Shown piece after piece: positions 8,343-50,495 of a DNA stretch of 64,000 nt. Made by a program: the position numbers and the translations under genes. Under the pieces are notes generated by a model. The model was not told the origin of the DNA and ran no database searches. It saw nothing but the letters and a program-made list of their open reading frames with translations. This DNA is from an uncultured Bifidobacteriaceae bacterium. GTDB lineage: Bacteria > Verrucomicrobiota > Verrucomicrobiia > Limisphaerales > UBA11358. Each line of letters opens with the position of its first letter. The first letter of the stretch is position 1. The stretch is from assembly GCA_964444085.1 (NCBI GenBank), contig CAYUGC010000001.1:9857-73856 (forward strand), written 5' to 3'.

Positions 8343-8411
8343 AAACCATGTGTTTCGGCAAGGATTGTGCTTCCGCTGGAGGCGCAATCAGAGGACAATT
8401 TGAAAAAACTT

Positions 8412-10381: not shown

Positions 10382-10386
10382 ACCGC

Positions 10387-15698: not shown

Positions 15699-15704
15699 CC
15701 CACG

Positions 15705-19727: not shown

Positions 19728-19737
19728 TTTTTGTTTC

Positions 19738-20604: not shown

Positions 20605-20612
20605 ATCACACT

Positions 20613-21368: not shown

Positions 21369-21376
21369 ATTTTCGC

Positions 21377-22234: not shown

Positions 22235-22286
22235 TTGTTTGGCGCGAAGTTTGCTAAAAATTAAGTTGGACGTATGTTCCTGAATT

Positions 22287-24317: not shown

Positions 24318-24375
24318 AGCCGCCCGGTTGCGTGGTAAAAAATTCCCGGTCTTGCGCCAGCGGTGGCGGAAAGCC

Positions 24376-25617: not shown

Positions 25618-25683
25618 TTTTTCCGCGCCATTCGCCAGTTGTCTTTGGCCGTTCAACCCCGATAATCTTCTGGCTCGGAACTT

Positions 25684-28444: not shown

Positions 28445-28468
28445 AGCGCGCCGATTTTCCATTTTGAA

Positions 28469-29695: not shown

Positions 29696-29727
29696 AGCGG
29701 CGCGCGGAAAACCTTTACCCTTTGACC

Positions 29728-30309
29728 ATGAGCGAAACGTCATCCCAGCCCGGCGGCCAGCCGACGGTGGATTTGTCGAGCTATTCGCCCGGCCGGTTTG
29801 ACCGCGGCGCGGGCCGGCTGAAAGAGGTGCTTTGGCTCGTCGTCAGCCTGGTTTTGTTCCGGCTGTGTCCGTTCAGTTTTTCGGCGCTGAAATGTTCCGT
29901 CCTTCGGGCGTTCGGCGCAAAGGTTGGGAAAAATGTCACCATCAAGCCGCAGGTGAAAATCACGTTTCCGTGGAAGCTCACCGTCGGCGACCACGTCTGG
30001 CTCGGTGAGGAAAGCTGGCTGCTGAATCTCGAACTCATCACCGTCGGTAGCCACGTCTGCATTTCGCAGCGCGCGTTTCTTTGCACCGGCAGCCACGATT
30101 ACAAACGCGCCAGTTTCAATCTCATTACGAAACAAATCATTGTCGAAAACGGCGCGTGGCTTGGCGCGGGCTGTTGGGTCGGGCCGGGCGTCGCGGTCGG
30201 CGCGCACGCCGTTTTGACCGCCGGTTCCGTGGCGGCCAAAAATCTGGAGGCGAATGGAATTTATCGCGGCAACCCCGCCGTGTTTGTGAAGCCGCGCATC
30301 ATTTCCTGA
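29728..30309 (+). CDS. Hexapeptide-repeat acetyltransferase (WcaF-like)
   Basis: N-terminal membrane-associated segment VLWLVVSLVLFRLCPF. Left-handed beta-helix repeats (GKNVTIKPQVKI, GDHVWLGEESWL, GSHVCISQRAFL, GAWLGAGCWVGPGVAVGAHAVL). Confidence 0.75.
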   Translation: MSETSSQPGGQPTVDLSSYSPGRFDRGAGRLKEVLWLVVSLVLFRLCPFSFSALKCSVLRAFGAKVGKNVTIKPQVKITFPWKLTVGDHVWLGEESWLLNLELITVGSHVCISQRAFLCTGSHDYKRASFNLITKQIIVENGAWLGAGCWVGPGVAVGAHAVLTAGSVAAKNLEANGIYRGNPAVFVKPRIIS

Positions 30310-30316
30310 AAAATTC

Positions 30317-33112: not shown

Positions 33113-33148
33113 GCGAACCACTTTTGATTTTACAACCACGATTACCGA

Positions 33149-35017
33149 ATGTTTGGTGAACTGGACAAATATGTGCTGGTCTTTTTGACCGGCCTGCTCG
33201 TGACCTACCTGCTCACGCCGGTCGTGCGTGGACTGGCGCACAAATACGGCGTCGTGGACAAGCCGGACGAGCGGCGGCCGCACAAGCGCATCACCGCGCG
33301 CGGCGGCGGCGTGGCGGTGGTCATCGGCGTCCACGCGGCTTGCCTGATGGCGGTATTGTTTCCGTGGTCGCAGTCGGGCGGCGCGCTGGATTTCGGCTGG
33401 TGGCAGAAATATGCGCTGGCCTCGCTGGTGCTGCTGGTGGTGGGCGTGGTTGACGATGTGCGCGGAATGCGGCCGACCGTCAAACTCAGCGGACAAATCG
33501 CGGCGGCTTTGGTGATGTGGTTTTCAGGCACGCGGTTCGGCCAGTTGCTGGGCCACGATCTGCCGCCGGTGGTGGATTGCGCGATGGTGGTCATCTGGCT
33601 CGTCGCCATCATCAATGCGTTCAACCTGATTGACGGCCTCGACGGCCTGGCGTCGGGGCTGGCGAGCATTTCCGCCGTGGGTTTGACGGGCATTTTGCTG
33701 ATGCAAAACGTGTCCGGCGAAGTGCTGCTGCTCGCCGGTTTTGTTGGCGCGTGTCTCGGTTTCCTGCGCTACAATTTTCATCCCGCGAGCATTTTTCTCG
33801 GCGACACCGGCAGTATGTTTCTCGGCTTCACGCTCGGCGTGGTTTCATTGCAAACCTTCACAAAAAACACGTTCCTGATTTCCATGACGATTCCCATCAT
33901 GGTGCTGGGTGTGCCGATTTACGACGCGCTGTTGGCGATCTGGCGGCGCTCGGTGCGCTCGTGGGTGAACGGCACCGGCGGCAAGCGCGGCATCATGCAG
34001 CCGGACGTGGAACACCTGCATCACCGGCTGGCGAAATCCGGCTTGAGCACGCAGCGCGTGGCGACGTTTCTCTATATTTTGAACGGCGGGCTGGTGACCG
34101 TCGGGCTGTCCATCATGTTTTTCCAGTCGCACGCGGCGGGGATTTTTCTCATCGCTCTGCTGGCCGGCGTGTATGTGCTGATGCGGCAGCTCGCCGTGAT
34201 CGAACTGCGCGAAACGGGCCGCGCGCTGCTGATGGGCCTGCACCGGCCGACGCACACGACTTTCAAGGCGCTGGCGTATCCGGTGTGGGATATGATTTGC
34301 CTGTCCGGTTCGCTGGCGGCGATCATGTGGTTTATTGAGGGGCTGCGCGTGGATTTCTGGCACATTTGGTTCGTGGATCTACCGGTATGGGCGACGCCGA
34401 CGTTTTCGCTGCTGGCGCTTTCGCGCACCTACATCACGCAATGGCAGCGCGCGCGCTTGCGTGACGTGCTGATGGTGCTGTGCTGGCTGCAGGCGGGAAT
34501 TCTCTTGAGCCTCGGCCTGGCGCTGGTGATCGACCCGGCGAACGGATCAAAATGGATCGTGCGCGCGGTGCTCGTTGCGGGCACGAGCCATCCGGTCATC
34601 ATCGCCTCGCGGCTGATTTACCGGTGCATCGAAGAGGCGGTCCTGTGGCTGCGGCGGCAGGATGAGGCGTCCGGCCAGCTGGAGCGCGTACTGCTTTATG
34701 GCGCCGGCACGCGGGCACAGCTTTTTTTGAAGGACCGCGCGCTGAAAATTTCCAAGAAGCCGGACGGCCGCCATCTGCTCGGTTTTATTGACGACGAAAA
34801 ATCGCTGTATTTCCAATGGGTTTATGGTTTCCTCGTGCTGGGCGGGCTGAAGGAGCTGCCGCAGTTGATTGAACGCCGGCGCGTGAACCGGGTCATTATT
34901 GTGTCCGAACTATTGCCGGAAAGCCGCGCGGCCATTCAAGAAATCACCACGCGGTTCGGTGTGAAGTTGAGCGAATGGGAGCCGGCGGAACATGAAATAA
35001 AACTGCCGGCAAACTGA
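33149..35017 (+). CDS. Polyprenyl-phosphate N-acetylhexosamine-1-phosphate transferase (WecA/MraY family) with an extra C-terminal TM + Rossmann-like module
   Basis: WecA blocks: GGGVAVV, VDDVRG, NAFNLIDGLDGLA, NFHPASIFLGDTGSMFLG, HLHHRL. After about aa 370 come four more TM segments, then RVLLYGAGTRAQLFLK...LLGFIDDE...LGGLKELPQLIERRRVNRVIIVS. Confidence 0.75.
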   Translation: MFGELDKYVLVFLTGLLVTYLLTPVVRGLAHKYGVVDKPDERRPHKRITARGGGVAVVIGVHAACLMAVLFPWSQSGGALDFGWWQKYALASLVLLVVGVVDDVRGMRPTVKLSGQIAAALVMWFSGTRFGQLLGHDLPPVVDCAMVVIWLVAIINAFNLIDGLDGLASGLASISAVGLTGILLMQNVSGEVLLLAGFVGACLGFLRYNFHPASIFLGDTGSMFLGFTLGVVSLQTFTKNTFLISMTIPIMVLGVPIYDALLAIWRRSVRSWVNGTGGKRGIMQPDVEHLHHRLAKSGLSTQRVATFLYILNGGLVTVGLSIMFFQSHAAGIFLIALLAGVYVLMRQLAVIELRETGRALLMGLHRPTHTTFKALAYPVWDMICLSGSLAAIMWFIEGLRVDFWHIWFVDLPVWATPTFSLLALSRTYITQWQRARLRDVLMVLCWLQAGILLSLGLALVIDPANGSKWIVRAVLVAGTSHPVIIASRLIYRCIEEAVLWLRRQDEASGQLERVLLYGAGTRAQLFLKDRALKISKKPDGRHLLGFIDDEKSLYFQWVYGFLVLGGLKELPQLIERRRVNRVIIVSELLPESRAAIQEITTRFGVKLSEWEPAEHEIKLPAN

Positions 35018-35043
35018 CAGCGGCAAAAAAACTACCAATCCAA

Positions 35044-36711
35044 ATGCGCAAAATCACCATCGTCATTTCCGTTTTCATCGTCCTCTTGCTGGTGGGCTAC
35101 ACCGGCTATCGCGGCTACAAGGTCTGGAAGCAGGACCACTGGCTCACGATGGCCCGCGGCTTTGCGGCCAAGGGCGACGCCCGCAACGAAATCCTCTGCC
35201 TGCGCCAGGCGCTGACCTTGAACCCGCAAAATTCCGATGCCTGCCATCTGATGGCTGACCTCGCCGACGCCACCCATTCCGACGCGGCGCTGGTCTGGCG
35301 GCAGCGGCTGGTGGACTTGAATCCCAAGTCGCTCGGCGAACGGCTGGCGTTGATGCAGACGGCCATGAATTTCGGTGATTTCGCCGTTGCGTCCAACGCG
35401 CTGGCCGGCGTGGCGGCGGCGGATCAAAAGACCGCCATTTTCCAGACCGCCGCCGGTTTGCTGGCGGCGGGGGGCGGGCAAACCCCGGCGGCAAAGGCGT
35501 ATTTTACCGAGGCCATCAAACTGGACTCAAACAACTTCATCCCGCAATTGAACCTGGCGGCGCTGCAATTGCGCGGCGCCAACGCGGTCGAGGCGGCGGC
35601 GGCGCGGGACAACCTGAAGCGCATCAGCCTGACGGCGACGAACCTCACCGTCCGCCACCAGGCGAAGCGCGAACTGATTGCGGACGCCATCCGCTTCGAT
35701 GATTTCGGCACCGCCGAGGCGCTCACGAAAGATCTGGTCGCGCCGACGAACGCATTTTTCCCCGACCGGCTGTTGCGGCTGGACGTGTTGCTCAAGGACA
35801 AGAACCCGGAGCTGAATTCCACGCTGGCCGCGTGCGAACGCGATGCGGCGGAAAGTCCGGCCCAGCTGTCGGGCATGGCGGTCTGGCTGATGAAAAACCT
35901 TTCGCCGGAACAGGCGCTGGCCTGGCTGCAAACCTTGCCGAACCCCACCCGGACCAACCAGCCGGCGGCACCGCTGATGGCCGAATGTCAGTTGCGCATG
36001 GGCGACTGGAAAAAATTGCAGGTCGGCATCCAGGGCCAAAATTGGAATGATCTGGAATTTGTGCGCCACGCGTTCCTGGCGCGGGCGCTGCGCGGCCAGG
36101 ATTTGCAGGAGGCGTCCGCCGGCGAGTGGGTGGTGGCGCTGAACATCGCCAACGACCAGAAGGGCGCGCTGATTTCGCTGTCCCGCATGGCGGCGGCGTG
36201 GCAGTGGCACAGCGAGACAGAGGCGCTGCTCTGGCTGGTGGTCAACCGTTATCCCGAGGAACGTTGGGCCCCGCCGGTGCTGATGCAGTCGCTCATCAAC
36301 GGCGGTCGCACGCGGCCGCTGCTGCAGTTGTTCGGCCTGCTGTCCCGGCGGAATCCGGCGGATCTGGAGATGAAAAACAACTTGGCCTTTGCGGCGCTGC
36401 TGCTGGGGGCGCAGGAGTTGAACCCGCACGAATTGGCGAAGGAGATTTACACCAAATCGCCGCAAAGCCCGGCGTTTGCAGCGACGTATGCCTACTCGCT
36501 TTATCTGCAAAAGCAATATGCCGACGCGCTCAAAGTCATGCAGGCGCTGGCCGCAAAGGATTTGGACAACCCGGCGGTCGCTGGCTATTACGGCCTCGTG
36601 CTCAAGGCGACGGGCAATGCGGACAAGGCCAAGGTTTATCTGCGGCTGGCGCTGCGGATAAAGCTGCTGCCGGAAGAACAGGCGCTGTTTCAACAGGCAC
36701 TGATCAACTGA
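35044..36711 (+). CDS. TPR repeat protein with an N-terminal membrane anchor
   Basis: N-terminal TM ITIVISVFIVLLLVGY. Repeated 34-aa helical Ala/Leu-rich units (e.g. ALTLNPQNSDACHLMADL, AIKLDSNNFIPQLNLAAL). Last gene of the co-directional block. Confidence 0.7.
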   Translation: MRKITIVISVFIVLLLVGYTGYRGYKVWKQDHWLTMARGFAAKGDARNEILCLRQALTLNPQNSDACHLMADLADATHSDAALVWRQRLVDLNPKSLGERLALMQTAMNFGDFAVASNALAGVAAADQKTAIFQTAAGLLAAGGGQTPAAKAYFTEAIKLDSNNFIPQLNLAALQLRGANAVEAAAARDNLKRISLTATNLTVRHQAKRELIADAIRFDDFGTAEALTKDLVAPTNAFFPDRLLRLDVLLKDKNPELNSTLAACERDAAESPAQLSGMAVWLMKNLSPEQALAWLQTLPNPTRTNQPAAPLMAECQLRMGDWKKLQVGIQGQNWNDLEFVRHAFLARALRGQDLQEASAGEWVVALNIANDQKGALISLSRMAAAWQWHSETEALLWLVVNRYPEERWAPPVLMQSLINGGRTRPLLQLFGLLSRRNPADLEMKNNLAFAALLLGAQELNPHELAKEIYTKSPQSPAFAATYAYSLYLQKQYADALKVMQALAAKDLDNPAVAGYYGLVLKATGNADKAKVYLRLALRIKLLPEEQALFQQALIN

Positions 36712-36956: not shown

Positions 36957-37613
36957 TTAAGAAACCTTGTCTTTGCGGAGGATGCGAACCGTGCTCACGC
37001 CAAACGGCAGGAGCAGCAGCACGCCGGCCACCACGGTGCTCGGTTCCGGCACCATGCCCAAAAGCGGCTGGGCATAGCCACGATTGGCATCGGTCAGGGT
37101 CAGGGCAAACACGCCGTAAGCGCCGCCGGAGGCGTTGGTGGAGTTGCCTGCGCCAAGGGCAGTTTGGGCGTCAACCACGAAGGCATTGGCCACGCCGCCG
37201 GGGCTGCCCTGAAAATACCAGATGGCCTGCTGGAGCTGGTTCGCCGAATTCGGGTCGCCATAGACATAACCGTAGCTGGCCAGATCGCCGGAGCCAAATT
37301 CGCTGTAGAGCCAAGCCGTGCCGAGAGTGACATTGGCCGGGCCGCCGCTGTTGGCCGGCGTCACCGTGTCAGAGGAGACGTAATTATAGGTCGTGCCGTT
37401 CCACGCATAGACCGTCGAGTTCAGGCAGAACGAAGTGAACGTGCCGAGACCCGATGAATTGACATTGATGGCATCGCCATAGGCACCGCCAATCGTTAGC
37501 GTGCCGGAATAGGTTCCGTTGTAGGAAATGGTGGCAAACGCACTCGTGGTGGCCAGCAGGCTGGCCGCACCAACGATGGCGCACAACTGTTTTACGATTT
37601 TGGGAGTTTTCAT
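36957..37613 (-). CDS. PEP-CTERM sorting-domain protein (predicted exosortase substrate)
   Basis: Signal peptide MKTPKIVKQLCAIVGAASLLATTSAFA. C-terminal VPEPSTVVAGVLLLLPFGVSTVRILRK, i.e. PEP motif + TM + basic tail. Confidence 0.85.
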   Translation of the reverse strand: MKTPKIVKQLCAIVGAASLLATTSAFATISYNGTYSGTLTIGGAYGDAINVNSSGLGTFTSFCLNSTVYAWNGTTYNYVSSDTVTPANSGGPANVTLGTAWLYSEFGSGDLASYGYVYGDPNSANQLQQAIWYFQGSPGGVANAFVVDAQTALGAGNSTNASGGAYGVFALTLTDANRGYAQPLLGMVPEPSTVVAGVLLLLPFGVSTVRILRKDKVS

Positions 37614-38020
37614 TTTGTTTTGGTTGTCCGCATTCTTGTTTTGGCTCGCCGTTCAAGCCACAACCGCCCGGCGGACATTTGGTTTTTGTTTGTTCAGTTA
37701 GCTCTTCAGTCGAATCTTAAACTTTCAACTGCGCTCATTTCATCAGTTAGCGGAAGTTTTCTCTATCACATAATGGGACATCAATACCTATTTTTGGGAC
37801 ACGGCGGATTTGGCGTCTGCAAGTTGTTTACCTCGGTTCGCCAGCGCCCTCTCCGCACCAGTCCACGGAAGCGACCGAAACGTTTCAGGAGCCGCCCGTA
37901 AATAATCGTAGCATCTCCACAAACCGTCGGATATTCTCGGCTGGATTTCAACTAACACGCGGCAGTGGATGTGTTTAACGGTTCAATGGATGTTTGCCCA
38001 TCGCCGGATTTGAATAAGAA

Positions 38021-39880
38021 ATGCACGAACCATTAAAAAATGGCAGCGTCCCGCTTTTGGCCAGCCAGCCGGCTTCCGCCAACGCTTTTCCGCCGGGAAA
38101 GTGCCTCCATGAATGGTTCGAGGTTCAGTCGGCCTGCACTCCCGACGCGACCGCGCTGACTTTTGAGCAACAGCATCTCACTTACCGCCAACTCAACGAA
38201 CGCGCCAACCAGCTCGCCCATCACCTGCGCCAGCTCGGCGTAAAACCAGAAACGCTCGTCGGCCTCTTCGTCGAACGCTCGCTGGATTTGCTCGTCGGCC
38301 TGCTCGGTATCCTCAAGGCCGGCGGCGCCTACGTGCCGATGGATCCGCAATACCCGCAGGCGCGGCTCGCGTTCATGATGCAGGACGCCGGCGCGGCGGT
38401 CATCGTCACCCAAGAAAATCTGGCGGCGCAGCATCCGATGCCGAATGCAAAATTGGTCTGCCTCGACACCGACTGGCCGACGATTGCCAGCGAGCCAAAA
38501 ACCAATCCGGCCAATTTCACCAAGCCGGAAAACCTAGCGTATGTCATTTACACGTCCGGCTCCACCGGCACGCCCAAAGGCTCGTTGATTTCGCACCACA
38601 ACGTCGTGCGGCTGTTTCAGGCCACGGAAAATTGGTTTCACTTCAATCAAGGCGATGTCTGGACGCTGTTTCATTCCAGCGCGTTTGATTTTTCCGTCTG
38701 GGAAATCTGGGGTGCGCTGCTTTACGGCGGCCGGCTGGTGGTCGTGCCGTTTCACACCAGCCGCTCGCCAGAAATTTTTCGTCGGCTTTTATGCGACGAA
38801 AAAGTGACGGTACTCAACCAGACGCCGTCGGCCTTCCGCCAGTTACTGCACGCCGATGAACTCGCGCCGGCCGGCGAAAAACTTTCCCTTCGTTATGTTA
38901 TCTTCGGTGGCGAGGCGCTGGATTTCAAAAGCCTGAAACCGTGGTTCAACCGCCACGGCGACGAGCAGCCGCAACTCGTGAACATGTATGGCATCACCGA
39001 AACCACGGTGCACGTCACCTATCGCCCCATCCGCGCGGCGGACACGGACAGCAGCAGCGTCATCGGCGTGCCGATTCCCGACCTGCAAATTTATCTGCTC
39101 GATGAAAATCGCCAGCCCGTGCCCGACGGCACGCCGGGCGAAATTTGCGTCGGCGGCACCGGTGTCGGGCGCGGTTATTTCAACCGGCCGGACCTCACGG
39201 CAAAAAAATTTATTTCAGATCCCTTTTCAGCAAATTCGGACAACCTGCTTTATTGTTCCGGCGATTTGGGTCGCTATCTTCCGAACGGCGATTTGGAATA
39301 TCTCGGACGCATTGACCAGCAGGTGAAGGTGCGGGGCTTTCGGATTGAACTGGGGGAGATTGAGACGGTGTTGAGCCAGCATCCAAGCCTGCGCGATAGC
39401 GTGGTCATCGCCCGGGATGACCAGCTTGGCGAGAAACAACTGGTGGCTTACGTCGTGCCCAAGGACAAGGCCCCGACGGTGATGGAATTGCGCGCGCACC
39501 TGATGCAGCGGTTGCCCGACTACATGGTGCCCGCCGCGTTCGTCACGCTGGATGTGTTGCCTCTAACAGAGCACGGCAAGTTGAACCGGCAGGCATTGAT
39601 TCAACAAGAAGAGGCGGTTGCATTAGCCACGGGTGTGACGTATCAGGCACCGCGCACGGAGTTGGAGTGGAAGCTGGTGGAAATTTGGCAAGGTGCGTTG
39701 CAGCGGGAAGGCATTGGCATCCGCGACGACTTCTTCGCACTTGGCGGACATTCCCTGCTGGTTTTCACCGTGATATCGCGGATCGCTGGAACGCTTAAAT
39801 TACAGTTGCCGGTCAGCATGCTATTCGAACACCGGACCATCGAGACGCTGGCCCGGCAAATCGAAGCCGACCGTTCAACC
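38021..39880 (+). other. NRPS module 1 (A-T); hand-read specificity code DFWNIGMVHK (Thr)
   Basis: Code residues read from FDFSVW, LNQTPS, VIFGGE, NMYGITETTVH and K520, by alignment to GrsA-PheA positions 235-517. No condensation domain precedes it. Boundaries approximate. Confidence 0.7.
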
Positions 39881-42800
39881 TTGGATAAAGCCCCGCCCCT
39901 GCCGCGAGCGGACCGGACGCAGCCGCTGCCCATGTCGGTGGGACAACAGCAACTGTGGTTGGTGCAACAAACCTTGCCGGATCCCGCCACCTACAACGAG
40001 CCAGTGGTCTATCATCTGCTTGGGTCGGTGGCGGTCGCTTGTCTCAAAAAATCTTTGGAAGCGATTTGGGAACGCCATGAAGTCCTGCGCACCGCCTTGG
40101 TTCAAGAAGGCGAATCCTTGGTGCAAAAAATCTTCCCGGCTAAAATGCTGGACCTGCCGTGGGAGGAGCTGGATCTGCGCGCAGTGCCGGCCAGCGAACG
40201 GCAGGTGGCAATGGAGCGGCACCTGATGGAAGTGAGCCGCCGGCCCTTTGATCTGGCGCAAGCGCCGTTATGGCGGGTGTTGTGGATGACGCTGGCGAAC
40301 CATGAGCATCAACTGGCTGTCATTTTCCATCACGCCATTGTTGACGAGTGGTCTGAACGTTTGTTTTTCGACGAGTGGCGCCGCTTGTATGCGGCGGAGG
40401 CGGACCCCGCGAAAGCGGGGCTGGCGGAGTTGCCGGTGCAATACGCCGATTATGCCGCATGGCAACGCTCACGGTTGACCGATGAATTTCTCCGGCGCGA
40501 ACGGGCTTACTGGTTGCAGCAACTCCAAAACATGCCGCCGCCGCTGAAATTGCCCGGCGACCAGTCGGCAGGCGGACGACGCAGCGGCCGGGGCGGAACC
40601 TATCGCTTTGAACTGTCTGGCCCCGTGGCTGAAAATCTGCGGAGCTGGGCGCAACAAGAGGGTGTGACCAACTTTGCCTGGATGCTGGCGGCGTTCCAGG
40701 CCTGGCTATATCGCTTTACGGGACAGGCGGACTTGGTGGTGGGATCGCCGGTGACTAACCGGGAGCAGCCCGAAACACAAAGTCTGTTCGGCTATTTTCT
40801 GAACACGCTGCCGCTGCGAATCCGGGTTGAAAAACAGGAGAGCCTTCGGGCATTTGCGCGCCGGGTCGGAAAAATGGTGCAGGCGGGGCTGGAGCACAAG
40901 GCCCTGCCCTTTGAGCAGATGGTGGCGATGGTGGCCCCGGAACCAGCCGGCGTTCGCGGGCCGATCTATCAAGTGATGTTCGTGCTGCTGGAACAAGGGC
41001 TGCCGCCGTGGAAACCGGCAGGAATCGAAGCCCGCCAGATTGACGCCGACACGCGCACGAGCAAGAACGACCTGACTTTGTTTGTTGAGGCGGAAGGGGC
41101 GGTTTGGAAATGTGCTTTGGAATATGCCGCCGAAGTGTTCACCGAGGAAGCGGCGGCCCGCACGGCAATTTACTTGCAGGAGTGGTTTGCTTCGCTCGCT
41201 GCCAATCCGGATGGAATGATCGAATGCCTGAACCTGTTGCCGGCGGCGGAACGACGCAAAATCCAAATGGAGTGGAATGCAACGGCGAGGGGGTATCCGC
41301 CGGACAAATGTGTGCATGAATTGTTTGAGGAACAGGTCGAGCGGACGCCGGAAGCGATCGCGCTGGAGTTCGAAGGACAGTCATTGACGTATCGGGAACT
41401 TAACCAGCACGCCAATCAACTGTCCCGGCATCTGAAAAAACTGGGCGTGGGTCCCGAGACGCTGGTGGGACTGTGCGTGGAACGCTCACCGGCGATGGTC
41501 GTAGGCTTGTTGGGCATTCTCAAGGCGGGCGGCGCGTATGTGCCGTTGGATCCAGATTATCCGAAAGCGCGGCTGGATTGGTTGCTGAAAAACGCGGCCA
41601 TAAAATGGTTGATAACCCAAACTCATCTCGCCAGCCGCTTCTCGCCGGCACAAAATCAAAACCTGATTTGCTTGGACCAGGCATCGTTCAATGAACCTAA
41701 AGACAATCTGAAGGTTCATGGCTCACCCAAAAACCTGGCCTACGTCCTCTTCACTTCCGGTTCCACGGGGTTGCCTAAGGGGGTTGCCATGGAACACGGT
41801 TCACTCGTCAACCTGCTGTGCTGGCAGGTGCAGCAAGCGCCCGCCCCGCAACGCACCCTCCAGTTCGCGTCAGTGTGTTTTGACGTGTCCTTTCAAGAAA
41901 TATTCTCGACTTTGATCAACGGCGGAACCTTGGTTTTGGTCAACCCGGCGGTGCGGTCAAATCCGGCGGAACTCTTTGAATTCATCCAAGCCCGGCGGCT
42001 GGAACGGCTTTTTTTACCGGTCGTCATGTTGCAGGAACTTGCGGAAGCCGCCCAGCAATCTTCCGGTGCCGCCGTCAACTTGAGGGACGTCATCACGGCC
42101 GGAGAACAACTGCGGATCACCCCGTCAATCCGCCGCTTTTTCGCGCGACACACAGCTTGTTTTTTGCACAATCACTACGGCCCGACCGAGTCCCATGTGG
42201 TGACCGCCCTGCCGCTGCCGAAAAATCCCAGTGATTGGCCCGAACTACCAGCGATTGGACGGCCGATTTTCAACACTACAATATATCTGCTGGACACCGA
42301 ACTTCAACCCGTGCCCATCGGGTTGGCCGGCGAGTTGTATATTGGCGGTGCCGGAGTGGCGCGAGGCTATCTGAATCGGCCAGACCTGACGGCGGAACGG
42401 TTCATCCCCGACCCCTTTTCGGCGAAGCCGGAAGCAAGGCTATACAAGACCGGGGATTTATGTCGTTACTTGCCTGACGGCAACATTGAATTTTTGGGGC
42501 GGATTGACCAACAGGTAAAAATCCGCGGGTTCCGCGTCGAACTGGGCGAAATCGAAGCGGTGCTGGGAACGCATCCGCAAGTGGCTGGTTGCGCGGTGGT
42601 GGCGCAGCAAAATGGCGGGGGAATTTTTTTGACTGCCTATGTGGTGACGCGCGCGGTCGCGCCGTTGACCGGGCCGGTATTGCGGGAGTGGTTGAGGGAA
42701 AAATTGCCGGATTACATGGTGCCGGCCCGGTTTGCAACCCTGCCCGCCCTGCCGCTCACGCCCAACGGAAAGCTTGACCGACAGGCATTGGGTCGGCTGG

Positions 42801-45800
42801 AGAACACAGTGGAACTGGCCGCCAGCGAAACGTATCAAGCCCCGCGCACGGAGTTGGAACGAAAACTGGTCGAAATTTGGCAAGGCCTATTGGGACGGGA
42901 AAGCATCGGCATTCACGACAACTTCTTCGCCCTCGGCGGCCATTCCCTGCTCGCCGTCAGATTGGTGTTCCGCATCCAGGAAGCCTTTGGCGTGAGCCTG
43001 CCGGTAAAGTTGGTATCCGAATGTCCCACCATCGCGGAGTTGAGTGAAGCGCTGGCGCGGCAGTCGCCAGTCAAAACCATTTCCATACCGCGTCGGCCAC
43101 GGAAAGTGGTGGGCGAACCGGCGCGTTATCCGGCGTCGTTCAGCCAGGAGCAGTTGTGGTTCATTGACCAATTGGAACCCGACAGCGCAGTCTATAACGT
43201 GCCGCTGGCGCTGCGTTTGCGCGGCGGGCTGGATCAGACGCGGCTGACGCAAAGTTTGAACCGGGTGATCGCGCGGCACGAGGCGCTGCGCACCATTTTC
43301 GCGGCGGAACAGGGCGTGCCGGTGCAAGTTGTCCGGCCCGAACTGAAGCTGCCTTTGGCGGTGACGGATTTGAGCGGCCAGCCCGACCCGGAGGTGGAGG
43401 CGCAACGGCTGATGTTACAGTCGGCGGGCAAGCCGTTTGACCTTCAGCGCGGGCCGCTAGTGCGGGCGGAGCTCTTCACGCTGGAGGCGGAAGACCAGAT
43501 ACTGTTGTTGACCATTCACCACATTGTGTTCGACGGGTGGTCCATTGACGTGCTGCTCAAAGATCTCGCCGCAGGTTATGCGGGCGAAAAACTTTTGCCG
43601 GCCTCGTTGCAGTATGGCGACTTCGCGGCCTGGCAGCGGGCGCACCTCACAACTCAAAAAGTGGAGCAACATCTGGCCTACTGGCGGGAACACCTGGCGG
43701 GCGTGCCGACCGTCCTCGAACTCCCCACCGACCAGCCCCGCAGCGGCGGTAGCCAGCGCGGTGCCCAACACTATTTCACCCTCCCGCTCGAGCTGACGGC
43801 CCAGCTCCGCGCCCTTGCCCAACAACATAACACCACTCTCTTCACCACCCTGTTGGCGGCGTTTCAGACGTTGCTGCACCGGTTTTCGGGGCAGCAATCC
43901 ATTCTGGTGGGTTCACCGATTTCAGGCCGTTTGCTGAACGAGAGCGAAAATTCCATCGGCTTCTTCGTGAACATGCTGCCGTTGAAGGCGGATTTTTCCG
44001 GCAACCCGGCTTTTTCAAATTTGCTGCAACAGGTTCATCAGAACGTTTGGGCGGCGCAAAGTCATCAGGAATTGCCGTTCGAAAGACTGGTTGCCGAGCT
44101 GCAGCCGCAGCGCGATCCGAACCGAAACCCGCTTTTCCAAGCCGCTTTCATCTTCGAAGTCGCGACGCCGCTGCTACCACAGATTCCCGGCCTGAAACTG
44201 GAGCTGGAACAAGTCCGGACGCCCACGGTCAAATTTGATCTGACGTTGACCCTGGCGGAAAAAGGCGGCGGCCTGCAATGTCTTTGGGAATATGCCGCCG
44301 GAACTTTTGGGACGGAAACCATTTCGCGCTGGTCGAAGTATTTTGAAACACTGCTGGTCTCGCTGGTCACAAATCCTGATTGCTTGATAAACGATTTGGA
44401 TTTGCTGCCTGCGGGCGAGCGTTCGCTTCTGCTCGGCGAGTGGAGTGCGACCGCCGGCGAGTATGCGCGCGGTGCGAGCGTGGCGGGGTTGTTTGTGGAG
44501 CAGGTGAAATTGCGGCCCAGTGCGGTGGCTTTAAGCTGGAGCGGCGGGCAGTTGAGCTACGGTGAACTCAATGAACGCGCCAACCAACTGGCGCATCATC
44601 TGCGTTCTCTGGGCGTGGGTCTGGAGACGCCCGTGGGTGTGTTGCTATCGCGCTCGGTGGACTATGTCGTCAGCGTGCTCGCCATCTTGAAGGCTGGTGG
44701 CGCGTATGTCCCGCTGGATTTGGAATATCCGGTGGAACGCCTGAAGTTCATGCTTGCCGACAGCGGCTGCAAGGTGGTTATTACCGCCCAGGATTTCAAA
44801 CTGTCCGGGGCGACGGAGTTGAACCTGGCTACGGCCGCGCCTTCCATCGCCGGTTGTCCGAAGGCCAATCTTGACTTGGTCAGCACGGCGGAATCGCTGG
44901 CCTATGTCATCTACACCTCCGGCTCCACCGGCCAGCCCAAGGGCGTCGCCATCCCCCAGCGCGGCGTGGTCCGTTTGGTGCGCGGCCAGACCTACGCTAG
45001 CTTTGATTCCTCCCAGCGCTTCCTGCTCTTGGCCGCCACCGCCTTTGACGCCAGCACCTTCGAGCTGTGGGCACCCCTGCTCAACGGTGGCGTCTGCGTC
45101 CTCTATCCCGAAGCGCTTGCCGATTACGCCCATCTGGAACAAGTGATCCGCGAACAGAACGTCACCTGTCTCTGGCTCACCGCCGGTTTGTTCAACCAGA
45201 TCATGGATGTTCGTCCTTCCGTCTTACAGACGATCAAACAGGTGCTGGCCGGCGGCGAGACCTTGTCCGTGGCCCATGTGCGCAAGGCGTTGAAACTCCT
45301 CCCGCACCTGCGCCTGACCAACGGCTACGGCCCCACCGAGTCCACCACCTTCGCCTGCACCTACGACCTTCCGCCGCACTTCACCGGCGCTTCGGTGCCC
45401 ATCGGCCGGCCCCTCGCCAACACCCAGTGCTATGTGCTCGATGCGCAGTTGCAGCCGGTGCCCGTCGGCGTGCCGGGCGAGCTTTACCTCGGCGGCGACG
45501 GCCTGGCGCGCGGCTACCTCAACCGGCCGGAGCTGACGGCGGAGAAATTTATCCCGAATCCATTCGACGCGAAAAACGCCACGCGCCTCTACCGGACGGG
45601 CGACCGGGTGCGCTGGCGGGCGGGCGGGAACCTCGAATTTTTGGGCCGCCTGGACAATCAGGTCAAGCTGCGCGGTTTCCGCATTGAACTGGGGGAGATC
45701 GAGTCGGTGTTGAACGGTCAGGCTGGCGTCCGCGCAAGCGTGGTGGTGGCGCGGGACAACCAGCTCGGCGAAAAACAGCTCGTCGCCTATGTCGTGCCCA

Positions 45801-47032
45801 AGGGGACACCGCCCACCGTCACGGAACTGCGGGAACATCTGCTCCAGCGGCTGCCCGACTACATGGTGCCCGCCATGTTCGTCACGCTGGAAGCGCTGCC
45901 GTTGACCGCCCACGGCAAGGTGGATCGCAACGCCCTGCCCACACCAGACTCCCGCCTCGAATCCGGTGCCGAGTTCACCGCCCCGCGCAATCCCACCGAA
46001 ACCAAACTTGCCGCCTTGTGGCAGGAACTCCTCGGCCTGAAGCAGATCAGCATCCACGACAACTTCTTCGCCCTCGGCGGCCATTCTCTGCTCGCGGTGA
46101 GGCTGGTCAATGAAATCAAGCGACAGATGTCTTTTGATCTGCCGATTCGAATGGTGTTCCAGCATCCGACGATTCAGGAATTGGCCAAAGTGTTGCCAGA
46201 GCAAAAAAACACCGCCCGCCGGCCCGAATTGATCCAGCTCCAGCCAGGCACCGCTGGCCCGGAGCTTTTTTTCCTGATTGATGAAGGCAGCCTCGGCCTG
46301 CTTAAGCTCGCGCATTTTCTCAACAAAGACCTGCGCCTGTATGCCTCAGTGGTGCCGATTCCCGAAACCACGTTGCGCGCGGCGGCGAAAAAAGACCTTT
46401 CTGCGCTGCCCCGCATGGAGGAGTGGGCGGCGAAACACGTTGCCCTCATCCGCAGCCGCAAAATCACCGGGCCCATCCGTCTCGCGGGCCATTGTTTCGG
46501 CGGGATGCTCGCCTTTGAGGTTGCCCGGCAGTTGCAGGCCGCCGGCGTCCGGGTGGAAACCGTATTGCTGCTCGACACCTGGATGATGATGCCGACTTTC
46601 TGGGGCGTGAAAAAGGCGTGGGTGAGCGAGCACTTCGGTAAACTTTTCCGGCAAGGCCCGAAATATCTCTGGCGCAAAAGCCGCCGCCGGATTGACATCG
46701 AAAAAAAGGAGCTGACCTCCCGCTTCGACCTCGCCTTCAGCGACGATTTCAACGTGCAAATCCCATGGGCCATCATCGCCCGGATTTACCGGCACGCCTT
46801 GCAGGGCTACCGGCCGGAGCCGCTGGCAACGCGGGGAATATTGTTCATCTCGCAGGACGACTGGATATCAAACGCCTTTCGCCCACAGGACAATACGCTC
46901 GGTGCCCGCCGCGTTTTTGGCGGCGGCGTGACGGTCGTGGATGTGCCCGGCAACCATGTGACCGTCCTGCAGGAAACCCACCTGCCGGCTCTCGCCGAAC
47001 ACTACAACCGGAATTTGAAGCCATCACCATGA
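38021..47032 (+). CDS. Three-module non-ribosomal peptide synthetase (A-T-C-A-T-C-A-T-TE)
   Basis: Three sets of adenylation core motifs (YTSGSTGTPKG / FTSGSTGLPKG / YTSGSTGQPKG; YGITE / YGPTE / YGPTE; GELxIGG; A10 Lys at aa 520, 1584, 2633). Three carrier motifs FFALGGHSLL (Ser 578, 1642, 2689). Two condensation His motifs (HHAIVDEWS at aa 770, HHIVFDGWS at aa 1833). C-terminal alpha/beta-hydrolase thioesterase with GHCFGG. Confidence 0.95.
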   Translation: MHEPLKNGSVPLLASQPASANAFPPGKCLHEWFEVQSACTPDATALTFEQQHLTYRQLNERANQLAHHLRQLGVKPETLVGLFVERSLDLLVGLLGILKAGGAYVPMDPQYPQARLAFMMQDAGAAVIVTQENLAAQHPMPNAKLVCLDTDWPTIASEPKTNPANFTKPENLAYVIYTSGSTGTPKGSLISHHNVVRLFQATENWFHFNQGDVWTLFHSSAFDFSVWEIWGALLYGGRLVVVPFHTSRSPEIFRRLLCDEKVTVLNQTPSAFRQLLHADELAPAGEKLSLRYVIFGGEALDFKSLKPWFNRHGDEQPQLVNMYGITETTVHVTYRPIRAADTDSSSVIGVPIPDLQIYLLDENRQPVPDGTPGEICVGGTGVGRGYFNRPDLTAKKFISDPFSANSDNLLYCSGDLGRYLPNGDLEYLGRIDQQVKVRGFRIELGEIETVLSQHPSLRDSVVIARDDQLGEKQLVAYVVPKDKAPTVMELRAHLMQRLPDYMVPAAFVTLDVLPLTEHGKLNRQALIQQEEAVALATGVTYQAPRTELEWKLVEIWQGALQREGIGIRDDFFALGGHSLLVFTVISRIAGTLKLQLPVSMLFEHRTIETLARQIEADRSTLDKAPPLPRADRTQPLPMSVGQQQLWLVQQTLPDPATYNEPVVYHLLGSVAVACLKKSLEAIWERHEVLRTALVQEGESLVQKIFPAKMLDLPWEELDLRAVPASERQVAMERHLMEVSRRPFDLAQAPLWRVLWMTLANHEHQLAVIFHHAIVDEWSERLFFDEWRRLYAAEADPAKAGLAELPVQYADYAAWQRSRLTDEFLRRERAYWLQQLQNMPPPLKLPGDQSAGGRRSGRGGTYRFELSGPVAENLRSWAQQEGVTNFAWMLAAFQAWLYRFTGQADLVVGSPVTNREQPETQSLFGYFLNTLPLRIRVEKQESLRAFARRVGKMVQAGLEHKALPFEQMVAMVAPEPAGVRGPIYQVMFVLLEQGLPPWKPAGIEARQIDADTRTSKNDLTLFVEAEGAVWKCALEYAAEVFTEEAAARTAIYLQEWFASLAANPDGMIECLNLLPAAERRKIQMEWNATARGYPPDKCVHELFEEQVERTPEAIALEFEGQSLTYRELNQHANQLSRHLKKLGVGPETLVGLCVERSPAMVVGLLGILKAGGAYVPLDPDYPKARLDWLLKNAAIKWLITQTHLASRFSPAQNQNLICLDQASFNEPKDNLKVHGSPKNLAYVLFTSGSTGLPKGVAMEHGSLVNLLCWQVQQAPAPQRTLQFASVCFDVSFQEIFSTLINGGTLVLVNPAVRSNPAELFEFIQARRLERLFLPVVMLQELAEAAQQSSGAAVNLRDVITAGEQLRITPSIRRFFARHTACFLHNHYGPTESHVVTALPLPKNPSDWPELPAIGRPIFNTTIYLLDTELQPVPIGLAGELYIGGAGVARGYLNRPDLTAERFIPDPFSAKPEARLYKTGDLCRYLPDGNIEFLGRIDQQVKIRGFRVELGEIEAVLGTHPQVAGCAVVAQQNGGGIFLTAYVVTRAVAPLTGPVLREWLREKLPDYMVPARFATLPALPLTPNGKLDRQALGRLENTVELAASETYQAPRTELERKLVEIWQGLLGRESIGIHDNFFALGGHSLLAVRLVFRIQEAFGVSLPVKLVSECPTIAELSEALARQSPVKTISIPRRPRKVVGEPARYPASFSQEQLWFIDQLEPDSAVYNVPLALRLRGGLDQTRLTQSLNRVIARHEALRTIFAAEQGVPVQVVRPELKLPLAVTDLSGQPDPEVEAQRLMLQSAGKPFDLQRGPLVRAELFTLEAEDQILLLTIHHIVFDGWSIDVLLKDLAAGYAGEKLLPASLQYGDFAAWQRAHLTTQKVEQHLAYWREHLAGVPTVLELPTDQPRSGGSQRGAQHYFTLPLELTAQLRALAQQHNTTLFTTLLAAFQTLLHRFSGQQSILVGSPISGRLLNESENSIGFFVNMLPLKADFSGNPAFSNLLQQVHQNVWAAQSHQELPFERLVAELQPQRDPNRNPLFQAAFIFEVATPLLPQIPGLKLELEQVRTPTVKFDLTLTLAEKGGGLQCLWEYAAGTFGTETISRWSKYFETLLVSLVTNPDCLINDLDLLPAGERSLLLGEWSATAGEYARGASVAGLFVEQVKLRPSAVALSWSGGQLSYGELNERANQLAHHLRSLGVGLETPVGVLLSRSVDYVVSVLAILKAGGAYVPLDLEYPVERLKFMLADSGCKVVITAQDFKLSGATELNLATAAPSIAGCPKANLDLVSTAESLAYVIYTSGSTGQPKGVAIPQRGVVRLVRGQTYASFDSSQRFLLLAATAFDASTFELWAPLLNGGVCVLYPEALADYAHLEQVIREQNVTCLWLTAGLFNQIMDVRPSVLQTIKQVLAGGETLSVAHVRKALKLLPHLRLTNGYGPTESTTFACTYDLPPHFTGASVPIGRPLANTQCYVLDAQLQPVPVGVPGELYLGGDGLARGYLNRPELTAEKFIPNPFDAKNATRLYRTGDRVRWRAGGNLEFLGRLDNQVKLRGFRIELGEIESVLNGQAGVRASVVVARDNQLGEKQLVAYVVPKGTPPTVTELREHLLQRLPDYMVPAMFVTLEALPLTAHGKVDRNALPTPDSRLESGAEFTAPRNPTETKLAALWQELLGLKQISIHDNFFALGGHSLLAVRLVNEIKRQMSFDLPIRMVFQHPTIQELAKVLPEQKNTARRPELIQLQPGTAGPELFFLIDEGSLGLLKLAHFLNKDLRLYASVVPIPETTLRAAAKKDLSALPRMEEWAAKHVALIRSRKITGPIRLAGHCFGGMLAFEVARQLQAAGVRVETVLLLDTWMMMPTFWGVKKAWVSEHFGKLFRQGPKYLWRKSRRRIDIEKKELTSRFDLAFSDDFNVQIPWAIIARIYRHALQGYRPEPLATRGILFISQDDWISNAFRPQDNTLGARRVFGGGVTVVDVPGNHVTVLQETHLPALAEHYNRNLKPSP
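39920..43076 (+). other. NRPS module 2 (C-A-T); hand-read code DVQFIAHVVK (Pro-like)
   Basis: Code residues read from FDVSFQ, LFLPVV, VITAGE, NHYGPTESHVV and K1584. One position differs from the canonical Pro code DVQLIAHVVK. Boundaries approximate. Confidence 0.65.
43126..46211 (+). other. NRPS module 3 (C-A-T); hand-read code DAFWLGGTFK (Val)
   Basis: Code residues read from FDASTF, LWLTAG, VLAGGE, NGYGPTESTTF and K2633. Boundaries approximate. Confidence 0.7.
46222..47029 (+). other. NRPS thioesterase domain with Cys in the nucleophile-elbow position
   Basis: GxSxG position reads G-H-C-F-G (codon tgt at 46493-46495, aa 2825). Candidate catalytic His in VDVPGNHVTVL near the C-terminus. 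Confidence 0.75.
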
Positions 47033-47778
47033 GCGCGCCGCCGCCGGCCGTCTGGCGCAAAATTTCCAAAATCCCGCCCGTCGCCCCGGCGGAAATTCAC
47101 GTCTGGCGGATTAACCTCCTCTGCCCGCTGGCAGAAATCGCGCGGCTGCAAAATGTTTTATCCGCCGCCGAAAAAAAACAGTCAGCGCGCTATCATTTCG
47201 CCCATGACCAGAGGCGTTTCATCGTTCGCCGCGCCGTTTTGCGGCAATTGCTGGCCGCCCAGCTTGGCCTGCATCCGGAAGAAATCAAAATTGATTCCGC
47301 CAATTTTCAAAAACCAAAAATTGCCGCTACGCAAAATTCTGACGGACTGCGGTTCAGCTCCAGCCACTCCGCCGACTGGGCGCTGATTGCCCTCGCGCAA
47401 AATCGCGAGGTGGGCGTGGATGTGGAACAGCACCGGCCCCTGCCCGACGCCGGTGACCTGGTGCGGAATTCTTTCTCGGATTTTGAAATCGCCGAATTTG
47501 AGCGCCTGCCCGAACCGGCGCGAACGGAAGGATTTTTCAACTGCTGGACGCGCAAGGAGGCGTTCGTGAAAGCCATCGGCCTCGGGCTGGCGTATTCGCT
47601 CAAAAAATTTTCCGTCACGCTGGCACCGGGTCGGCCCGCCGCGCTGGTGGACGTGGCCGGCGATTCCGTCGCGCGCAAAAAATGGCTCATGGCTTCCCTG
47701 AACGTTGCGCCCGCCCACTCAGCGGCGCTGTTTTTTGAGGCCGGGCCATCGGCCATCCGCTGTTTTGCATGGCATTGA
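47029..47778 (+). CDS. Sfp-type 4'-phosphopantetheinyl transferase
   Basis: ATGA overlap with the NRPS stop. Motifs GVDVEQH and FFNCWTRKEAFVKAIG (W/F-x2-KEA-x2-K). Confidence 0.85.
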   Translation: MSAPPPAVWRKISKIPPVAPAEIHVWRINLLCPLAEIARLQNVLSAAEKKQSARYHFAHDQRRFIVRRAVLRQLLAAQLGLHPEEIKIDSANFQKPKIAATQNSDGLRFSSSHSADWALIALAQNREVGVDVEQHRPLPDAGDLVRNSFSDFEIAEFERLPEPARTEGFFNCWTRKEAFVKAIGLGLAYSLKKFSVTLAPGRPAALVDVAGDSVARKKWLMASLNVAPAHSAALFFEAGPSAIRCFAWH

Positions 47779-50493: not shown

Positions 50494-50495
50494 TA

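Follow-up and report, generated by a model that had tools for sequence, protein, structure and literature searches.

A 64,000-nucleotide stretch of DNA from an uncultured bacterium of the order Limisphaerales (Verrucomicrobiota; contig CAYUGC010000001.1, positions 9,857 to 73,856 of the forward strand; hereafter the window) encodes a three-module non-ribosomal peptide synthetase (NRPS), which is followed by a 4′-phosphopantetheinyl transferase (PPTase) and flanked, on the divergent side, by the gene for a small PEP-CTERM protein (the partner) next to an exosortase and exopolysaccharide (EPS) locus. Judged from gene order in relatives, NRPS, PPTase, and partner form one unit, often attached to this type of exosortase locus. 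Comparative genomics shows the cassette, by its distribution, to be lineage-specific to Limisphaerales, and the NRPS not to be a stray secondary-metabolite gene. The cassette is new as a whole; its parts (NRPS, PPTase, PEP-CTERM protein, and a fold like that of thioester domains, TEDs) are of known kinds. As far as its domains tell, the chemistry of the NRPS is ordinary; its coupling to a TED-like PEP-CTERM protein and an exosortase is unexpected and, on the comparative data, well supported. An ordinary NRPS thus belongs to a cassette that has not been described before and that probably has to do with the surface or matrix. Exosortase/PEP-CTERM systems occur widely among environmental bacteria, and no paper in the searched literature ties an NRPS to an exosortase. 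Even read conservatively, the cassette is a new, easily recognizable accessory of exosortase loci, and it places TEDs in a phylogenetic and anchoring setting that is new for them.

The main elements of the window are listed below (A, adenylation; T, carrier; C, condensation; TE, thioesterase domain).

38021..47032 (+): NRPS gene, open reading frame (ORF) of 9,012 nt, 3003 amino acids, A-T-C-A-T-C-A-T-TE
47029..47778 (+): Sfp-type PPTase, 249 amino acids, ATGA overlap with the NRPS stop
36957..37613 (−): PEP-CTERM partner protein, 218 amino acids, divergent to the NRPS, between exosortase block and NRPS
37774..37801 (+): direct repeat TGGGACA-N14-TGGGACA in the divergent intergenic region, 21-bp period
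27209..36711 (+): exosortase core block: GT4, GT4, WcaF-family acetyltransferase, exosortase, GT4, WecA-like transferase, TPR protein
30317..31891 (+): exosortase (PF09721, 132 bits versus a cut-off of 25.7; TIGR04178 signature, 54.3 versus 23)

Recurrence of the cassette beside exosortase loci

From adjacency in the window, the earlier note had suggested a functional link between the NRPS and the EPS/exosortase system. Gene order in other genomes supports this: the NRPS–PPTase pair recurs beside this exosortase subfamily in three arrangements and adjoins the partner gene in all 10 contigs of a partner-anchored test. Instead of standing unlinked to EPS loci in relatives, the outcome that the note had named as speaking against the link, the pair recurs there. 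A 485-kb contig (L011) and a second locus (L002) share the gene set of the window (partner, A-T-C-A-T-C-A-T-TE, PPTase, TPR protein, WecA-like transferase, GT4, exosortase, acetyltransferase, GT4), with the exosortase block on the other side and inverted. In locus L004, a C-A-T-TE synthetase is followed, on one strand, by a partner homologue, the PPTase, and the exosortase.

An exosortase-anchored scan covered 80 metagenomic loci (46–86% identity), with GT4-GT4-acetyltransferase-exosortase-GT4-WecA-TPR as the conserved core. An NRPS or PPTase was visible in 13 of the 80, and 23 loci were judgeable, that is, they either showed an NRPS/PPTase or extended for at least 3 kb beyond the core in both directions. 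The genes occur as TPR> <partner NRPS> (arrangement i, as in the window), with the NRPS–PPTase pair convergent to the exosortase block (arrangement ii), or as NRPS> partner> PPTase> exosortase> on one strand (arrangement iii). In L004 and L112, the end of the PPTase gene and the start of the exosortase gene share 22 nt, which couples the two translationally; in L110, they lie 19 nt apart. Exosortase loci lacking an NRPS carry one or more PEP-CTERM genes at the same position. When the search was anchored on the partner, the NRPS was divergently adjacent in 10/10 contigs (L114–L123), down to 49% partner identity, and a PPTase homologue lies directly 3′ of the NRPS in most loci reaching that far. 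In L112, an α/β-hydrolase-like ORF with an HSMGG elbow (2013-2771, +) is located between the partner gene and the PPTase.

Some observations weigh against a strict coupling. L121 contains the partner and NRPS pair without an exosortase block nearby, and ∼10 of the 23 judgeable exosortase loci lack an NRPS within their visible flanks; the exosortase link is therefore frequent, not obligatory. Furthermore, some of the metagenomic loci are redundant (L036 equals L114; L082–L084 are near-identical), which makes the locus counts approximate.

The direct repeat in the divergent intergenic region is exact; the window has a single copy, and so does each of 26 fetched loci (L002, L004, and L011, the others within L034–L063 and L109–L123). 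Wherever its position was checked (the window plus the 10 loci L002, L004, L051, L058, L112, L114, L117, L119, L121, and L123), the repeat is found upstream of the PEP-CTERM family gene and oriented opposite to it, 44–366 nt from the TED-like PEP-CTERM gene, and it is kept down to ∼50% protein identity. It looks like a candidate binding site of a dimeric or tandem regulator. The same repeat is also present in some loci without an NRPS, and a second conserved block, TGGCTCGNCGTYCAAGCCAC, abuts the start of the partner gene. Scans of the intergenic region for sigma-70 promoters and terminators gave nothing above chance.

The exosortase itself belongs to the EpsH family, with an invariant Cys in its ACSGIRS motif, and stays under every curated subtype cut-off (XrtD, 125 versus 400; XrtA, 96.6 versus 208; the rest lower). 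For this reason, it looks like an unnamed, Verrucomicrobiota-specific subtype, as far as profile scores can tell. The protein is a 524-amino acid fusion, in which the EpsH-type N-terminal domain is followed by a conserved C-terminal domain of ∼200 amino acids.

A PEP-CTERM partner protein resembling thioester domains

The gene from which the NRPS diverges had been called a PEP-CTERM substrate gene, and 36957..37613 (−) indeed carries a true PEP-CTERM signal. The tail of the protein consists of VPEPS, a transmembrane helix, and RKDK (C-terminal sequence VPEPSTVVAGVLLLLPFGVSTVRILRKDKVS), and its leader is a hydrophobic N-terminal stretch ending in SAFA (signal peptide). The tail, which has the composition of a PEP-CTERM sorting signal, is nearly invariant in 49 homologues; short PEP-CTERM hidden Markov models stay under threshold on the partner. 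Altogether, 62 homologues were found, none of them named and none with a Pfam domain. Besides the sorting signal, F59, F62, C63, G98, A100, Q128, W132, and Q182 are invariant in the 49 homologues.

Within the mature protein, three motifs resembling those of TEDs follow each other in the order F62-C63-L-N, L-Q128-Q-A-I-W132, and A-Q182-P-L-L. In TEDs, the sequence motifs sit in a β/three-helix/β topology (PMC4450167, PMC6194298). The TED fold pairs a β-barrel with a bundle of three helices. The first motif, containing the Cys, is represented by F62-C63-L-N, with F62 and C63 invariant, and the third, containing the Gln, by A-Q182-P-L-L, with Q182 invariant. The helix motif TQxx-φ-W corresponds to L-Q128-Q-A-I-W132 in the central helix of the model, with Leu instead of Thr; this motif is not fully conserved among TEDs either (PMC4450167, PMC6194298). 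Searching all PDB sequences with the family profile of the partner returned only three weak matches, one of which was the TED of SfbI (5a0l, E = 1.5). The alignment to SfbI falls exactly at QxAIWY and at the C-terminal YQNLL, the counterpart of A-Q182-P-L-L. By its position, the YQNLL Gln aligned to Q182 would be Gln261, the bond-forming Gln of SfbI (PMC4450167).

An AF2 model of the mature domain alone (pLDDT 95.1, pTM 0.91) consists of four strands, helices, and two strands. Among 350,542 PDB chains, Foldseek ranked the TED of SfbI first for the trimmed model (E = 5e-4, prob 0.99, TMq 0.44) and the TED of Cpa second (E = 0.057, prob 0.91, TMq 0.50). Several results count against the resemblance: the full-length model, which included signal peptide and transmembrane helix, gave no TED match in Foldseek, only noise; the TM-scores of the partner model to TEDs are only 0.44–0.50; the Pfam TED model (PF08341) misses all 49 members even at E ≤ 10; and the NCBIfam models do not detect the family. 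TEDs are known to diverge down to 12% pairwise identity (PMC4450167). On balance, it is quite likely that the partner shares homology with the TED fold. From motifs, profile, and modelled fold, the partner looks like a putative TED with a predicted Cys63–Gln182 thioester.

The partner shares the β/three-helix/β topology with the TEDs of Gram-positive TIE adhesins (SfbI and Cpa), which are its top fold matches, but differs from them by the Leu in place of Thr before Q128 and by being a single domain of 160 amino acids without a stalk. It is also anchored differently, by PEP-CTERM and exosortase in a diderm, versus LPXTG and sortase for the Gram-positive TEDs. TEDs have been reported exclusively from Gram-positive bacteria (PMC4450167), a later survey of TEDs covers Firmicutes and Actinobacteria only, and no paper in the searched literature mentions TEDs together with PEP-CTERM. 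What has so far been a Gram-positive, sortase-anchored, host-binding device would here have a counterpart with a PEP-CTERM anchor in Verrucomicrobia from peat.

The synthetase, its thioesterase, and the predicted peptide

The domain order of the NRPS, read from its core motifs, and its Pfam content (3 AMP-binding, 3 AMP-binding_C, 3 PP-binding, 2 Condensation, 1 Thioesterase, and no other domain) reproduce the A-T-C-A-T-C-A-T-TE architecture of the earlier note. The individual domains are:

38117..39610 (+): A1, adenylation domain, code DFWNIGMVHK (Thr)
39662..39865 (+): T1, carrier domain, LGGHS, Ser578, 5′ part 82% identical to T2 at the nucleotide level
39914..41230 (+): C1, condensation domain, variant motif HHAIVDE; C1+A2 unit not in sister locus L114
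41306..42805 (+): A2, adenylation domain, code DVQFIAHVVK (Pro-like)
42854..43060 (+): T2, carrier domain, from Pfam and core motifs
43124..44431 (+): C2, condensation domain, HHIVFDG, LCL-like
44468..45955 (+): A3, adenylation domain, code DAFWLGGTFK (Val)
45998..46201 (+): T3, carrier domain, from Pfam and core motifs
46253..47029 (+): TE domain, Cys-Asp-His triad in GHCFGG, LLLDT, and PGNH

All three A domains contain SGSTGxPKG, FDxS, YGxTE, GRxDxQVKxRGxRIELGEIE, and the GK motif, core motifs of the A3–A10 series characteristic of an NRPS. The phosphopantetheine sites of the T domains (LGGHSL, containing GGxS) are at residues 574, 1638, and 2685, and a terminal thioesterase with a catalytic triad (Pfam Thioesterase; Cys2825, Asp, His) completes the chain. 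The absence of a starter condensation, an epimerization (E), or a methyltransferase (MT) domain was equally upheld: the stop-free region opens 3 nt before the ATG, and A1 starts at approximately residue 33, so that the stop codon directly upstream leaves no hidden starter C domain, and the motif spacing leaves no space for an E or MT domain. As also stated before, no MbtH-like gene is present, a motif scan having been negative in every frame. Two features had escaped the earlier note, the Cys nucleophile of the TE and the HHAIVDE motif of C1.

The PPTase, whose overlap with the NRPS stop (ATGA at 47029) was correctly described before, has the two-lobed fold of the ACPS superfamily (ACPS, PF01648; AASDHPPT_N, PF22624), and the motifs VGVDVE and WTRKEAFVKA are readable in its translation. 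It scores below the curated equivalog cut-offs (HetI, 147.6 versus 370; AusB, 54.7 versus 225; AcpT, 55.9 versus 174).

The composition of the NRPS gene is native (GC at third codon positions 0.72; codon usage r = 0.93 versus its neighbors). It is under purifying selection (dN/dS 0.11–0.34 versus relatives), and the same holds across NRPS segments, PPTase, and partner gene (dN/dS 0.11–0.41). A recent horizontal insertion of the NRPS, considered as well, is unsupported by these composition values. An identical NRPS protein is encoded on the ENA metagenome contig ERZ27245394 (76.8 kb). Using the T3-TE fragment as the query for homologues, the nearest species-representative genome was a metagenome-assembled genome of the Limisphaerales from palsa peat (95% identity over T3-TE), and the close relatives are all Verrucomicrobiota from bog or peat samples.

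By its operon plan, the NRPS is closest to AusA/AusB, the aureusimine system of Staphylococcus aureus, which also combines a compact synthetase starting with A-T, without a starter C domain, with an Sfp-type PPTase behind it. AusA is the best NCBIfam match of the NRPS, below the equivalog cut-off (2199.5 versus 2500), and AusB matches the PPTase weakly (54.7 versus 225). AusA has two modules and a reductase domain at its end, and it incorporates Val into a short peptide product. In contrast, the NRPS described here has three modules and Cys-TE release via a Pfam Thioesterase without a reductase domain, and it occurs in a different phylum and a different genomic context.

The earlier note had extracted the Stachelhaus codes by hand. 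They were re-derived by MAFFT alignment of all A domains to GrsA-PheA, and all three were recovered identically: DFWNIGMVHK (Thr) for A1, DVQFIAHVVK (Pro-like) for A2, and DAFWLGGTFK (Val) for A3. The GrsA-PheA reference gave back its own canonical code, DAWTIAAICK, which validates the alignment register. The nearest solved A domains agree with the predicted Thr, Pro, and Val. The top solved homologue of A2 with a single A domain is the Pro-activating TycB1, and Pro-activating GrsB1 also ranks high; that of A1 is ObiF1, a β-hydroxy-amino-acid enzyme. A1 also matches structure entry 5n9w, which we take to be the Thr-specific Thr1, and A3 matches the first A domain of LgrA, presumably Val-activating.

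Typing of the C domains, proposed in the earlier note, indicated the LCL type for both: TycC6, the LCL reference, resembles them far more than DCL TycB1 or E domains do (C2 versus TycC6, 3.5e-77; versus TycB1, 4e-19). Among solved structures, C1 matches Txo1/Txo2 at e-61/e-60, TycC6 at e-42, and AmbE (7r9x) at e-24. A dehydrating C-modAA domain of the AmbE type, converting Thr to Dhb, was considered for C1 and rejected, as C1 is much nearer to ordinary elongation C domains. C2 contains the canonical HHIVFDG, whereas in C1 the Gly of HHxxxDG is replaced by Glu (HHAIVDE). Since HHxxxDE-WS recurs in other intact NRPSs of the sequence pool, for example, P0089, whose C domain is the nearest relative of C1 in that pool (48% identity), the variant appears to be a natural subclass and is unlikely to be a lesion. 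As both C domains are LCL-like, an all-L peptide is expected; the simplest product would be linear H-Thr-Pro-Val-OH. A comparable system is ACV synthetase, which has three modules starting with A-T, a terminal TE, and Val as the third residue, and which hydrolytically releases a tripeptide with a free amine. The NRPS of the window differs from it in lacking an E domain before the TE, in its first and second substrates, and in the Cys of its TE.

Several points call for caution regarding this product. The substrate codes are predictions and so, consequently, is Thr-Pro-Val; DVQFIAHVVK is one residue off what we assume to be the canonical Pro code; condensation by C1, which carries HHAIVDE, is predicted; no orthologue of the C1-A2 unit was found; and some family members have a Ser-TE (L090, L117–L120), so that Cys is not essential to the association of NRPS and cassette.

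In the TE, the nucleophile elbow GHCFGG (residues 2823–2828) places Cys2825 where Ser is usual. The Cys, the Asp (LLLDT), and the His (PGNH) are invariant in all relatives covering the sites (46–88% identity). Counted over the 145 nearest 50%-cluster representatives that cover the nucleophile site, Cys was found in 14/15 at ≥45% identity, in 5/28 at 35–45%, and in 15/102 below. The Asp at position I is kept in 143/147 relatives. A sequencing error or a pseudogene lesion as the origin of the Cys was ruled out by its invariance in the clade. A clade restricted to exosortase-linked NRPSs was rejected as well: Cys-TEs also end polyketide synthase (PKS)/NRPS hybrids, and some exosortase-linked NRPSs use Ser. 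The same Cys-TE clade (49–59% identity) is found in the PKS/NRPS hybrids L012, L013, and L014 of other Verrucomicrobiota, with the layouts T-aminotransferase-C-A-T-TE, AT-ACP-C-A-T-TE, and KR-T-TE in these three loci. As it terminates such hybrids, the Cys-TE is, on its distribution, a lineage-wide release domain and not cassette-specific.

The nearest solved TE, a weak match (E = 7e-9), is that of AB3403/A1S_0115 from Acinetobacter baumannii (4zxh), which also has a Cys nucleophile (GWCFGG) and whose position-I Asp aligns with that of LLLDT. Relative L004 has the same plan as AB3403, C-A(Gly)-T-TE(Cys). Biofilm/pellicle formation and surface motility depend on the AB3403 operon (PMC5376624). 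Unlike the NRPS of the window, AB3403 has only one module, C-A-T-TE, supplied by a separate acyl-ACP; it is linked to a lipopeptide-like product and has no exosortase or PEP-CTERM context.

Among relatives, the predicted peptide varies considerably:

Window: Thr-Pro-Val
L114: Thr-Val (1953 amino acids)
L115: Thr-Val-Val (2998 amino acids)
L123: Ser-like-Val-Val
L011: Ala-Val-?
L121: Val-Ala-?
L119: Val-Gly-Asp-like
L117: Ala-(C-T without A)-Asp-like
L089: Ser-Val

Comparative genomics shows that the peptide-coding modules, as predicted from their codes, are swapped, inserted, and deleted much faster than neighboring genes change. The partner of L123 is 93% identical to that of the window, whereas their NRPSs are 60% identical; dS is 0.96 for the NRPS versus 0.20 for the flanking partner gene, which indicates module replacement and not point divergence. 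Partner- or exosortase-linked synthetases with a visible start all begin with A-T, except L004 with its single C-A-T-TE; because they start without a C domain, their products are expected to keep a free N-terminal amine. Near-identical loci thus offer a natural set of swapped, inserted, and deleted modules (Thr-Val, Thr-Val-Val, Thr-Pro-Val, Ser-like-Val-Val), which should be useful for studying NRPS evolution. L114 and L115 encode an identical partner protein (P0038), yet their NRPSs are bimodular and trimodular, respectively; judged from the sequences, a C-A(Val)-T unit was duplicated or deleted very recently within one population. In L117 and L118 (NRPS at 1995-9575 and 1995-9464, −), the layout is A-T-C-T-C-A-T-TE; the middle module, with C and T but without A, implies possible trans-loading, module skipping, or a decaying module.

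The earlier note had put the T1 and T2 regions at about 80% nucleotide identity. The similarity is real (82%) but extends over 122 nt only (39638-39759 versus 42830-42951) and is one of several intragenic repeats (A1sub/A3sub, 76% over 287 nt; T2/T3, 94% over 50 nt). The internal duplication or recombination proposed to explain it gained support from L036/L114, in which the Thr module is joined directly to C2-like and Val modules, C1-A2 is not present, and the T domain combines a T3-like with a T2-like half. This mosaic joint argues that the T1/T2 repeat in the window marks the junction of an inserted or deleted C1-A2 unit.

Proposed role of the peptide and further features of the window

On the basis of the domain families, the PPTase would bring T1, T2, and T3 into the holo state. 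A1, A2, and A3 would load L-Thr, L-Pro, and L-Val, and the two LCL-type C domains would assemble H-Thr-Pro-Val-S-T3, with the free amine kept and without epimerization or methylation. The tripeptide would then move to the TE Cys, forming a thioester acyl-enzyme, and be released, most simply as the linear tripeptide. The peptide would act at the cell surface or in the matrix, together with the partner and the exosortase machinery. Such a role is suggested by the operonic linkage of the NRPS with genes for a TED-like PEP-CTERM protein and an exosortase, and on genetic grounds the peptide is most likely surface- or matrix-acting rather than an independent antibiotic or siderophore. With fair, though not high, confidence, we therefore regard the system as an intact, selected NRPS with a dedicated PPTase, in a cassette with a TED-like partner, the peptide having its role at the surface or in the matrix.

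A conceptual analogue for a surface-directed role is Dlt D-alanylation, in which a polymer of the cell surface is decorated by means of an NRPS-like A domain and a carrier protein. The A domains of the window are matched by DltA models; unlike Dlt, however, the cassette has no DltB/DltD-like transfer proteins and encodes a multi-module peptide synthetase with a TE. A surface or matrix role is opposed by the lack of any exporter or transferase conserved in the cassette, as the NRPS is cytoplasmic and the partner periplasmic or at the surface. The earlier note had reported no dedicated exporter in the window; this stands for the surroundings of the NRPS, but the window does contain two candidates elsewhere:

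12742-14511: PglK/MsbA-like ABC exporter, not adjacent to the NRPS
54601-58922: MacAB-like pump (HlyD-like protein, ABC ATPase, MacB_PCD/FtsX permeases), not adjacent to the NRPS

The MacA/MacB-type system at 54601-58922 is a possible export route.

The missing transferase and exporter would be no obstacle if the peptide were an independent diffusible metabolite (a signal, an antibiotic, a siderophore, or a surfactant precursor) that has no molecular interaction with the partner or the exosortase. We consider this unlikely, although far from negligible; adjacency would then, with the same reservation, result from co-regulation during biofilm growth or from a variable accessory region. It would fit that the partner is conserved and the peptide is not (93% versus 60% for window and L123), and that the NRPS sits at the variable “cargo” end of the locus, where other genomes have PEP-CTERM genes only. 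The AB3403 operon, merely linked to biofilm, may serve as a precedent (PMC5376624), as may the N-acyl amino acid synthases that lie beside PEP-CTERM/exosortase genes (Craig, Cherry & Brady 2011, as cited in PMC7293339). Together with the XrtA-associated acyl-CoA ligases (TIGR03098), the latter are examples of small-molecule genes embedded in exosortase/EPS loci; unlike the NRPS and PPTase of the window, both are single enzymes and not modular. What speaks against mere adjacency is that the NRPS adjoins the partner in 10/10 partner-anchored contigs and that the association survives three rearrangements. Moreover, in arrangement iii the partner is placed between NRPS and PPTase, within a co-directional string that ends in the exosortase and has overlapping stop and start codons.

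This tight operon coupling would also suit a more far-reaching idea, namely, that the peptide is joined covalently to the surface system via its free N-terminal amine, which we regard as improbable. In one such route, itself doubtful, the amine would attack the predicted Cys63–Gln182 thioester of the partner, giving a γ-glutamyl isopeptide; in the other, which we would credit no more, the peptide would serve as the nucleophile resolving the acyl-enzyme of the exosortase, a part played for sortase by the lipid II cross-bridge. The family members that start with A-T should offer a free α-amine (L004 excepted), and the first residues assigned are small (Thr, Ser, Ala, or Val). Primary amines react with the thioesters of TEDs (PMC4450167), and the exosortase acceptor was called “an unknown periplasmic nucleophile” (Haft 2006; PMC1569441), a question resolved by no later paper in the searched literature. 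A thioester acyl-enzyme on the TE Cys should, in addition, favor aminolysis or transfer. Nevertheless, the NRPS is cytoplasmic, whereas the thioester and the active site of the exosortase lie outside the cytoplasm, and the cassette has no conserved exporter of its own. L004, with a single-module C-A-T-TE beside the exosortase, probably makes an N-acylated product. Many exosortase loci of this type are without an NRPS, so that the peptide cannot be a general exosortase acceptor. It is improbable that the cassette works as a self-contained system for covalent ligation at the surface of a diderm, with the peptide amine as the ligand for the TED or the exosortase acyl-enzyme. If it were, an exosortase-sorted protein would be tied covalently to a genome-encoded, fast-diversifying peptide tag or to a peptide-decorated matrix component, the partner would be the first TED with an endogenous ligand to come from outside the Gram-positives, and the system could expose the acceptor chemistry of exosortases.

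Last, the Cys-TE could be thought to build a strained ring (β-lactone or β-lactam, as for obafluorin by ObiF and sulfazecin by SulM) and hence a reactive warhead, in line with its Cys nucleophile and the β-hydroxyl on the N-terminal Thr; this is very improbable because ObiF and SulM have their catalytic Asp after strand β7 (position II) and a C-terminal β-hydroxy or β-amino residue (PMC11298585), whereas the TE of the window has its Asp at position I, like AB3403, Val is predicted at the C terminus of the peptide (DAFWLGGTFK), and close relatives in the same family use Ser.

Apart from the cassette, the window contains further genes. The EPS locus upstream of the NRPS spans ∼30 kb and comprises, besides the exosortase core block:

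7305..27192 (+): AraC regulator, Wza-like export protein, Wzc-like tyrosine kinase, PglK/MsbA-like ABC exporter, many glycosyltransferases, FkbM methyltransferase

Within it, ORFs of 676, 502, 311, and 288 amino acids (22287-24317, 25684-27192, 18792-20604) have no Pfam or NCBIfam match; a homologue of the 502-amino acid gene is conserved upstream of the GT4 pair in relatives. An Rfam scan of 36–54 kb found tRNA only, and a tRNA gene is located at 52990-53061 (−). A type IV pilin-like N_methyl/DUF1559 protein is encoded at 53688-54497, followed by the MacA/MacB-type efflux system. Right after the PPTase, GC falls to 0.50–0.53 (47900-53100). The genes there encode a YgjP-like metallopeptidase, a ClpS homologue, a TAXI-family solute-binding protein, and an HU-like protein, and the codon usage of the YgjP gene is atypical (r = 0.54). 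This region may be a separate, possibly acquired segment.

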